Made by a program: the position numbers and the translations under genes. Below the pieces are notes generated by a model. That model saw nothing but the letters and a program-made list of their open reading frames with translations. It did no database searches and was not told the origin of the DNA. This document shows, in pieces, positions 43,245 through 44,741 of a stretch of DNA of 64,000 nt. This DNA comes from Eledone cirrhosa (lineage: Eukaryota). Position 1 is the stretch's first letter; every line of letters starts with the position of its first letter. The stretch is from contig OZ024759.1 in the NCBI GenBank assembly GCA_964016885.1, forward strand, positions 36,084,001 to 36,148,000, written 5' to 3'.

Positions 43245-43263
43245 TTAACACCTGCTTTCCTTG
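43245..43263 (-). CDS. putative terminal coding segment of the peptide precursor
   Basis: ctctttctag acceptor gives NKESRC* after the microexon, or ARKAGVKRY* if the microexon is skipped. The choice of exon is inferred. Confidence 0.35.
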
Positions 43264-43421
43264 CTAGAAAGAGTTGGACTAGTCTTCAAAGACCAAGTCA
43301 ATACTGAAGCAAGAGAGAATACAGTACCAATTCTTGAACAATACGAAATGAATTTTTATCTGATTTCTGAAACAATATACCAATAAATATATTTGTTCAA
43401 GAATTCGGTACTGTATTCTCT

Positions 43422-43467
<46 letters not shown>

Positions 43468-43527
43468 GATGTGTGTGTGTGTGTTGTTAATAGTGACTAT
43501 TTCCACATTTACACCTGTTTTACTCAC

Positions 43528-43543
43528 TTTCCATGTGAGTGGA
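43528..43543 (-). CDS. putative 16-nt microexon of the peptide precursor
   Basis: Strong acceptor (cttcctgtttctccag) and donor (gtgagt) around TCCACTCACATGGAAA, which reads VHSHG(N/K). The upstream intron is 88 nt. Confidence 0.5.
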
Positions 43544-43631
43544 CTGGAGAAACAGGAAGTAAAGGGTTTTGATAAAGTACATAACGTGCAACTTGCTGGT
43601 GAATTGAGGATTGTTCTCGTTATTGTCTTAC

Positions 43632-43700
43632 CCCTCCTCCCTGTTTTTTTCTCTCTTTTATGCAAGTAGCGTTTATCAACGACATATTTATAATATTCTT
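43632..43700 (-). CDS. secreted-peptide precursor exon 3 (dibasic sites, phase 1-1)
   Basis: ctttcag|AA GAA...AGG G|gtaaga, 69 nt: [23 protein letters not shown]. Confidence 0.68.
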
Positions 43701-43811
43701 CTGAAAGAATTGTGGGCAGTTTATAATGTTATTTATACAACGGTGAATAAAATTTCATATGGAAAAACACCCCACAAAAATTACAATGTATTTTAACTGA
43801 AAATTAAGTAC

Positions 43812-43871
43812 CTTTGATGTGTTGTTTAGAATCCTCATTGGCCAAGTCATCAAATGATGGAGATAAATCTT
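43812..43871 (-). CDS. secreted-peptide precursor exon 2 (acidic spacer, phase 1-1)
   Basis: ctttcag|AA GAT...AAA G|gtactt, 60 nt: EDLSPSFDDLANEDSKQHIK. Flanked by two homologous 111-nt introns. Confidence 0.7.
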
Positions 43872-43982
43872 CTGAAAGAATTGAAAGCAATTTTTAATGT
43901 TATTTATACGACTGTGAATAAAATTTCATATGGAAAAAAAAACCAAAAAATTTACAATCTATTTTAACTGAAAATTAAGTAC

Positions 43983-44112
43983 CTGCCACTGTTTGTTTAG
44001 ATTCCTCATTGGTGGTAATTGCTTCCTCTGATGCCGGAGCTAAAGTCACAGCTAGGGCAACACAAGCAACCATCATAAAAATAAGTACAAGTGTTACTGG
44101 ACAATATTTCAT
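43983..44112 (-). CDS. novel small secreted-peptide precursor, first coding exon (signal peptide plus start of acidic pro-region)
   Basis: gcaccATG context. Translates to MKYCPVTLVLIFMMVACVALAVTLAPASEEAITTNEESKQTVA, then G|gtactt donor. Basic n-region, long hydrophobic h-region and an ALA-type cleavage site. Confidence 0.72.
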
Positions 44113-44741
44113 GGTGCTTTCTTACCAAGATTGTTGTTACTGTCGTCGTTCTAAATACTTGTGGCTTGTATCTTAGATGGGAAAACAAAGAAATTATTCA
44201 GATACATGTATTTAAATCACGGAAAAGTATATCATATATATATATACATATATATATATATATGTATACAAAATATAGAAAACAATCAAATTTTAGTTTA
44301 ATACATTTAATTGCTGATAATTGCTTCTTCCAGACAAATGTCAGGAATCATCAGAGCATACACAATGTTTAAACAATTATAATCTTAGTGCTTAGTACTA
44401 CCCTTTCATATTTATAATTGTATATAACTCATATAGAAGTATAAATATTACTAAGATAAGTCAATTGCATGAACTCATAATCCTTGATTTACTGCTATAT
44501 ATATTTTGATGATAGCCATTGAATGGCTATGACCTCATCAAGCAGTTAGTCAGTTCTTAGATATGCCAGCTCTGTGTTTATAGTGTTGATGGTATCAGAG
44601 CCTTGGATATATATATAAAGTTTAATATAGAAATGGCTTCTACAGGACTAGAACTGTTTCATTCAAAAGATATCATCTTTTACACTCTACTAAAGTATTG
44701 ATTACCTTACTGACTGGTTACCCCCGATTGAACCCAGGACT

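Follow-up and report, generated by a model that had tools for sequence, protein, structure and literature searches.

A candidate orphan gene for a small secreted protein in Eledone cirrhosa, with a putative basic tail borrowed largely from a retrotransposon

We analysed a 64,000-nucleotide stretch of the 3.0-Gb genome of Eledone cirrhosa (the window), which is rich in AT microsatellites, and followed up a candidate gene on its minus strand (44171..43245), situated between SMARCAD1 and an LPGAT1-like gene. The reading that we prefer, which we regard as an evenly balanced call from the sequence, is that of a young, lineage-restricted octopod orphan gene encoding a small secreted protein, whose main product would be an acidic chain of 51 residues, likely exocrine. 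We concluded that exons 1 and 2 exceed chance, whereas the dibasic tail does not; the prepropeptide look of this tail appears largely borrowed from a retrotransposon. The initial annotation had described a small, secreted, lineage-specific gene. For exons 1 and 2 this is still the best reading, but the convertase sites and the cationic tail that it had included are retrotransposon. A repeat match, set beforehand as a refuting observation, was found for exon 3 and the exon 4 acceptor, and not for exons 1 and 2.

The four segments that had been proposed on the minus strand (44171-43983, 43871-43812, 43700-43632 and 43543-43528) were each found to be preceded by AG and followed by GT, as claimed. 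Together with 43263-43245 they join into 294 nt, that is 97 codons and a stop, without an internal stop (Table 1). The anionic pro-piece of the initial annotation was confirmed, as residues 22-72 have 13 D/E against 4 K/R. The last 25 residues have 10 K/R and 3 H, with 2 D/E.

Table 1. Features at and around the candidate gene (positions in the window)
Feature	Position	Strand	Remarks
SMARCAD1 orthologue	49136-59725, with stretches L081-L082	minus	~20 exons mapped
Candidate non-coding first exon	46499..46640	minus	start uncertain; owner either the candidate gene or the LPGAT1-like gene
Exon 1	43983..44171	minus	59 nt of 5' UTR, ATG at 44112, 43 codons, ends in phase 1
Competing donor	44120..44125	minus	6.7 bits, 13 nt ahead of the ATG; splicing here would leave a non-coding exon of 46 nt
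Predicted signal peptide	44050..44112	minus	most likely 21 residues; candidates 17, 19, 21, 25 and 27
Intron 1 (111 nt)	43872..43982	minus	3' half is a piece of the retrotransposon tail
Exon 2 (60 nt, phase 1-1)	43812..43871	minus	duplicates the end of exon 1 within the gene; forms the second acidic repeat
Intron 2 (111 nt)	43701..43811	minus	88% identity to intron 1
Non-LTR retrotransposon 3' tail	43588..43757	plus	antisense to the gene; gives acceptor, exon 3 and donor site
Exon 3, proposed (69 nt, phase 1-1)	43632..43700	minus	all KR/KK/RR pairs; wholly retrotransposon-derived
Exon 4, proposed (16 nt)	43528..43543	minus	strong sites, inside a second repeat
Last coding piece with stop, proposed	43245..43263	minus	weakest part of the model; acceptor 1.6 bits
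Second copy, exons 2-5, without signal exon	40491..41713	minus	exon 2' 41677-41618 and exon 3' 41506-41438, identical
Third copy, partial, without signal exon	38443..38729	minus	100%; exon 2'' 38693-38634, exon 3'' 38522-38454; ends at a 10-kb (TA)n array

The splice sites were scored against a 740 kb background with matrices made from 14 donors and 16 acceptors of two neighbouring genes, 3 of 17 donors and 2 of 18 acceptors having been dropped as doubtful junctions; with such a small set the scores are rough. The acceptors of exons 1, 2 and 4 were strong (9.9, 7.0 and 6.8 bits, reached by 0.3%, 1.5% and 1.6% of the background AGs, respectively), and so was the donor of exon 4 (10.4 bits; 0.1% of the background GTs score as high). 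The donors of exons 1 and 2 were weak (2.6 and 3.0 bits, at the bottom of the true range of 2.6-11.3), that of exon 3 scored 4.4 bits, and the acceptors of exons 3 and 5, at 1.0 and 1.6 bits, fell under the true range of 2.3-17.5. The donor at 44125 scores above the donor of exon 1, and its use would exclude the ATG. Three sequencing runs behaved as DNA contigs of one sample, with no exon-exon joints among the matches listed, and we gave them no weight as regards splicing.

The initial annotation had called its last two exons less certain, and rightly so. Exon 4 matches, in both its acceptor and its body, a second repeat of low copy number that recurs at 10 other places (79-87%), and three acceptors stronger than that of exon 5, at 43366, 43303 and 43283, would give products of 120, 99 and 107 residues, respectively; a high-copy repeat begins at ~43242. 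We consider exons 4 and 5, as drawn, doubtful.

The start codon of exon 1 has A at -3, and no other ATG occurs in the preceding 59 nt. This exon is single-copy at both the protein and the DNA level; the DNA-run contig over it has a depth of 4.6-5.8, and neighbouring repeats reach up to thousands. The predicted signal has K at position 2, a 12-residue hydropathy of 3.12 and small residues at -1/-3. We judged it by a home-made rule, which asks for a basic residue in positions 2-6, an uncharged 12-residue stretch with hydropathy of at least 2.5, small residues at -1/-3 and at least 32 open codons. The background consisted of 1,898,800 bases, counting both strands, from 95 of 98 10-kb stretches, the 3 adjoining the window being left out. 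When a purine at -3 and the splice thresholds were also imposed, the rule gave one match in the window (44112) and none in the background. We had designed the rule knowing the candidate, and relaxed its donor threshold from 2.6 to 2.5 when the initial run missed the candidate (2.58). These counts speak of rarity and not of function. In 6 Mb of order-4 Markov sequence the filtered rule found 2 matches, none of them with a net acidity of at least 2. Without the context and splice filters it matched 34 times in the 1,898,800 bases, 25 of these in microsatellites and 9 elsewhere. Among the non-microsatellite ORFs of this kind, one of 37 codons in a background stretch (L108:+5251) resembles a signal peptide and failed the context and splice filters.

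Tandem Repeats Finder reported a 171-nt period at 43697-44012. In a codon alignment, exon 2 repeats all but two of the 20 codons that end exon 1, and therefore a unit of ~177 nt (exon end, intron and four bases of the next exon) was duplicated in tandem. Even the 5' part of this alignment, where the likeness is poor, has 14 of 24 matches (p=0.001 uncorrected). Both the junction of the duplication and the 6-nt gap keep the frame; 7 of the 18 aligned residues are identical, and all four acidic ones stay acidic. When the same load of substitutions was placed at random in 20,000 trials, 47% of the products were stop-free and 2.4-2.7% were also as conservative as the observed pair; with a third gap placement, 0.75% were stop-free and as conservative. 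The BLOSUM score of the alignment is 41 in this frame, against 23 and 7 in the others. We take the keeping of the frame in exon 2 as moderate evidence for a coding history.

The exon copies differ at 19 of 55 sites and the intron copies at 13 of 111 (Fisher p=0.0007). This excess persisted upon stratification by base (p=0.0045 and 0.0019, i.e. about 0.002-0.005), lost significance in two of three gap placements under a cruder stratification, and was gone when clustered changes were counted as single events (7 in the exon versus 9 in the intron, p=0.40). It is therefore suggestive at most of a faster change of the exon. From the sequence features of both exons, we hold it probable that exons 1 and 2 are, or were, coding.

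A DNA search with 43758-43635 returned 965 first-look candidates in the genome. The repeat family covers ~43757-43588 of the window, and another piece of it closes intron 1; this dispersed repeat holds the acceptor of exon 2 as well as that of exon 3. Its longer copies bear the C-terminal end of an ORF on the opposite strand, for which the genome holds 22,816 candidates. The tails of two long copies match the window; a third copy shares the ORF end and has a PHD finger along with an RVT_1 match (E=7.7e-5, below the cut-off). The ORF end, the tail matches and the reverse-transcriptase match identify the exon 3 region as the 3' tail of a non-LTR retrotransposon in antisense. The family (L173, L174 and L175) combines a PHD finger and a reverse transcriptase with an antisense tail that offers an AG and a K/R-rich frame, and long C2H2 zinc-finger ORFs adjoin copies of it in two stretches (L161:6372-8000 and L028).

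We compared the window copy with 27 other best-scoring copies, two near-duplicate pairs among them. The AG acceptor is present in 24 of the 27 and a frame of at least 22 open codons in the phase of exon 3 in 8; only 2 combine the AG, the open frame and an in-phase donor. At least two dibasic pairs were found in the best frame of 21 copies and at least three in that of 4; the four pairs of the window copy are equalled by one other copy in its best frame. The window copy departs from most of the family in its first KR, its donor and a deletion of 5 nt, and the divergence of exon 3 from the family is unremarkable (rank 21 of 26). Given the 24 AGs and the 21 copies with dibasic pairs, the acceptor and the basic composition come with the repeat, and what is peculiar to the window copy is its donor and part of the pairs. 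As the purine-rich strand of the repeat yields two or more such pairs in 21 of 27 other copies, these sites are weak evidence of processing, and the dibasic tail, which had been read as the sign of a peptide precursor, does not rise above chance. Across 35 loci with other copies, a search for signal exons next to them found none except one low-scoring ORF, which lies on the sense strand of the element itself and turned up in two loci that overlap. If exons 1 and 2 are coding, we consider it likely from the sequence that exon 3 is used as well. The antisense tail may supply octopods with basic exons more generally, and genome scans should be wary of it, as this repeat generates dibasic sites in the absence of selection.

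Part of the locus recurs downstream: 43907-42680 at 41713-40491 (98.6%) and 42523-41427 at 39534-38443 (99.2%). Exons 2 and 3 are thereby present three times in identical form and exon 1 once. A 702-nt contig of the DNA run X3 crosses the 5' boundary of the second copy, and contigs covering the repeated stretch are ~1.9 times as deep as exon 1, a ratio that is not a copy number. It is likely that at least two copies are real; the third is putative. Since exons 2 and 3 are both phase 1-1, the modules can be chained in frame, with 86, 129 and 172 open codons for one, two and three of them, respectively. Two short palindromic MITE-like elements (43314-43421 and 42588-42692) lie inside the duplicated segment. 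The 10-kb (TA)n array further downstream contains an island of ~198 bp (37720-37925) with at least 40 copies at 99-100% identity and 1,254 candidates, often in inverted pairs with a spacing of tens to hundreds of bases; it seems to be a very young element sitting in TA microsatellites.

Among the neighbours, the SMARCAD1 helicase exon at 53463-53218 is 87-88% identical to SMARCAD1-type proteins (Octopus bimaculoides, O. sinensis and O. vulgaris among the sources), and its identity to three further assembly proteins is 70-78%; the 3' end of the gene is at ~49133. Downstream of the candidate gene and on the same strand is an acyltransferase gene (PF01553, E=2.3e-4, under the curated cut-off), which we label LPGAT1-like and whose first visible exon is at 24381. 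The first coding exon expected for it was not found in 24436-49133; it may be hidden in an assembly gap (32011-32210) that interrupts the 10-kb (TA)n array between the two genes. Two candidates for this exon, 28075-27900 and 37925-37720, were rejected as repeats, and a genome-wide pattern for the expected end of the LPGAT1 exon gave 2 matches against 2 in a control.

Upstream of exon 1, the donor at 46498 is the strongest in 47200-42600 (11.2 bits). The candidate non-coding exon that it would close is outside the 39 repeat matches, which start near 46470, and by our inference would be linked to the candidate gene. Within the promoter-like stretch 46499-46700 there is also an upstream ORF of 17 codons (46553), and a CRE-like 8-mer lies at 46683; this 8-mer is the sole one in the window, against 3 in 950 kb of background. 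This stretch, at ~46.7 kb, may instead be owned by the acyltransferase gene.

No homologue was found by word searches among proteins of 23-76 and of 77-2000 residues, including the proteomes of Octopus species, and a full HMMER scan of 1.84 billion representatives gave no credible one; the query was the 43-residue exon 1, half of it signal-like, which limits the sensitivity. Three HMMER matches were discarded as spurious, being repetitive proteins of 1,315-4,463 residues with 9-13 matched stretches. Atlas gave no match, a Pfam match to DUF4148 was rejected (E=0.041, 14.7 bits against a cut-off of 27), and no Pfam family was found for the frame of exon 3. Literature searches for the motifs of the frame, and for octopus with LPGAT1 and SMARCAD1, found no description among the papers covered; File S1 of the salivary-gland preprint cited below (822 transcripts) may hold a relative.

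It is conceivable, though in our view rather unlikely, that there is no working gene here, and that an intergenic mosaic or a dead gene has put together a chance hydrophobic ORF, a 177-nt duplication and splice-like sites borne by repeats. Three of the five acceptors do come from repeats, and the same AG recurs in 24 of 27 family copies; the donors of exons 1 and 2 are weak, a competing donor precedes the ATG, and the protein searches found no homologue. The 9 non-microsatellite signal-like ORFs in 1.9 Mb, with the splice and context filters off, indicate that such frames arise in the background, and the near-identical downstream copies without exon 1 look like ordinary segmental duplications carrying unrelated repeats. 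However, a mosaic does not easily explain a junction and a gap that both keep the frame, with conservative changes that retain the acidic residues, and none of the 34 background ORFs passed the context and splice filters.

A classical prepropeptide, in which an anionic pro-piece masks an active cationic or amidated C-terminal neuropeptide, antimicrobial peptide or toxin, fits the layout, and the four dibasic pairs of the window copy, its first KR, its 5-nt deletion and its donor, all uncommon in the family, are in its favour. We nevertheless find it improbable, as the tail is retrotransposon sequence, most of whose other copies have two or more dibasic pairs, and exons 4 and 5 are the least secure. 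Cleavage at the KR/RR sites would yield pieces of 51, 3, 5 and 11 residues. There is one Cys beyond the predicted signal, and none of eight neuropeptide and toxin motifs was found in the frame; with no homologue in the protein searches and no Pfam family, no conserved mature-peptide motif shared with mollusc relatives emerged. A prepro-antimicrobial peptide has an intact cationic mature peptide, disulfide-held or amphipathic, whereas the predicted tail falls into three short pieces. The origin of exon 3 and its acceptor in an antisense element agrees with a putative exonisation. The bioactive C-terminal peptide of the initial annotation is hence the weaker option. Slightly less probable still is that the exons form a new or alternative 5' end of the LPGAT1-like acyltransferase, adding a signal or anchor and an acidic linker. 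The strand is the same, exon 1 joins the exon at 24381 in frame with 100 of 100 codons open, the canonical first coding exon was not found, and the promoter-like stretch is upstream of both. But the gap in the (TA)n array can hide the true exon, a shared phase 1 is expected by chance one time in three, and exon 1 seems unlike the N-terminus of LPGAT1.

In our preferred reading, that of an orphan secreted protein, we take the 51-residue chain as the working product because the acidic double repeat is the sole part with signs of constraint. The antisense retrotransposon tail would have inserted with a ready acceptor, and would have been exonised after a GT donor arose in the window copy. Transcription would start from a putative promoter near 46.7 kb, with splicing of exons 1, 2 and 3; the product would enter the secretory pathway and lose ~21 residues, and its basic tail would be trimmed by convertases cutting at KR/RR, so that the acidic chain with its two homologous repeats remained. 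The downstream copies of exons 2-5, which lack the signal exon, are recent. We prefer an exocrine role on account of the orphan status, the short length, the local duplication and the report of 27 salivary-gland superfamilies described below; by this analogy it is somewhat more probable than a neural one. The protein would then be an effector acting via its acidic repeats, not a neuropeptide, in the posterior salivary gland in the first place and in the skin or a reproductive gland next. It is a less probable, though not negligible, idea that a precursor has been caught being built, in which a retrotransposon acceptor and convertase cassette, a lengthened acidic spacer and tandem modules would lead to a multi-copy peptide precursor. 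If expressed, the locus would be an orphan secreted protein gene with its construction steps still legible in the DNA, and would suggest a cheap octopod route to prohormone-like precursors via an abundant retrotransposon with an antisense acceptor and a K/R-rich frame; if unexpressed, it would be an ordinary repeat mosaic.

The subject bears on the gain by cephalopods of many short secreted proteins without outside homologues. In a preprint (10.64898/2026.02.02.703354), cephalopod salivary glands are described as expressing short secreted proteins in 27 superfamilies whose function is unknown, many of which lack homologues elsewhere. The octopodiform venom superfamily SF1 comprises the octopus tachykinins and octotensins, peptides reported there to arise de novo; its genes lie between NR-GRF and FABP, and the ORF is mostly on two exons, the second with 10-20 residues. 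The motifs are FxGLM / FxGxR for tachykinins and RRPYIL for neurotensin (PMC6880623; 10.64898/2026.02.02.703354). On these descriptions, the candidate resembles SF1 as a short octopod-only precursor with a predicted signal peptide, basic cleavage sites and local duplication. It differs in lying between SMARCAD1 and the LPGAT1-like gene, in having three to five coding segments, in the lack of a tachykinin or neurotensin motif, and in having one signal exon rather than an array of whole genes. We therefore rejected its identity with an SF1 venom gene on the grounds of neighbours, exon number and motif.

Other known systems share single traits with the candidate. In conotoxin genes the signal exon is commonly followed by a phase-1 intron (PMC3862624), as is the predicted signal exon of the candidate. 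In snake three-finger toxin genes, clustered exon change stands beside conserved introns (PMC2474615); here too the exon copies diverge more than the intron copies and in clusters, a likeness that is not significant with clusters counted once. Unlike either toxin group, the candidate has no cysteine framework or gene family. Antisense LINE splice sites have been recruited from mouse L1 (PMC2176070), and here also the splice sites, putatively recruited, are on the antisense strand of a non-LTR retrotransposon; the difference is that in this mollusc the sequence comes from the 3' tail of another element family and would provide a secreted precursor with its convertase sites. The antifreeze glycoprotein (AFGP) of northern gadids is encoded by a de novo secreted protein gene (PMC9233646). 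The candidate is like it in the predicted signal peptide and short pro-piece, the growth by internal duplication and the absence of a homologue elsewhere; it differs in having no long repeat domain, and a de novo origin of its exons 1 and 2 would be hypothetical. Taken together, the candidate is probably an orphan secreted protein with a putatively exonised element, of a known kind comparable to the gadid AFGP.
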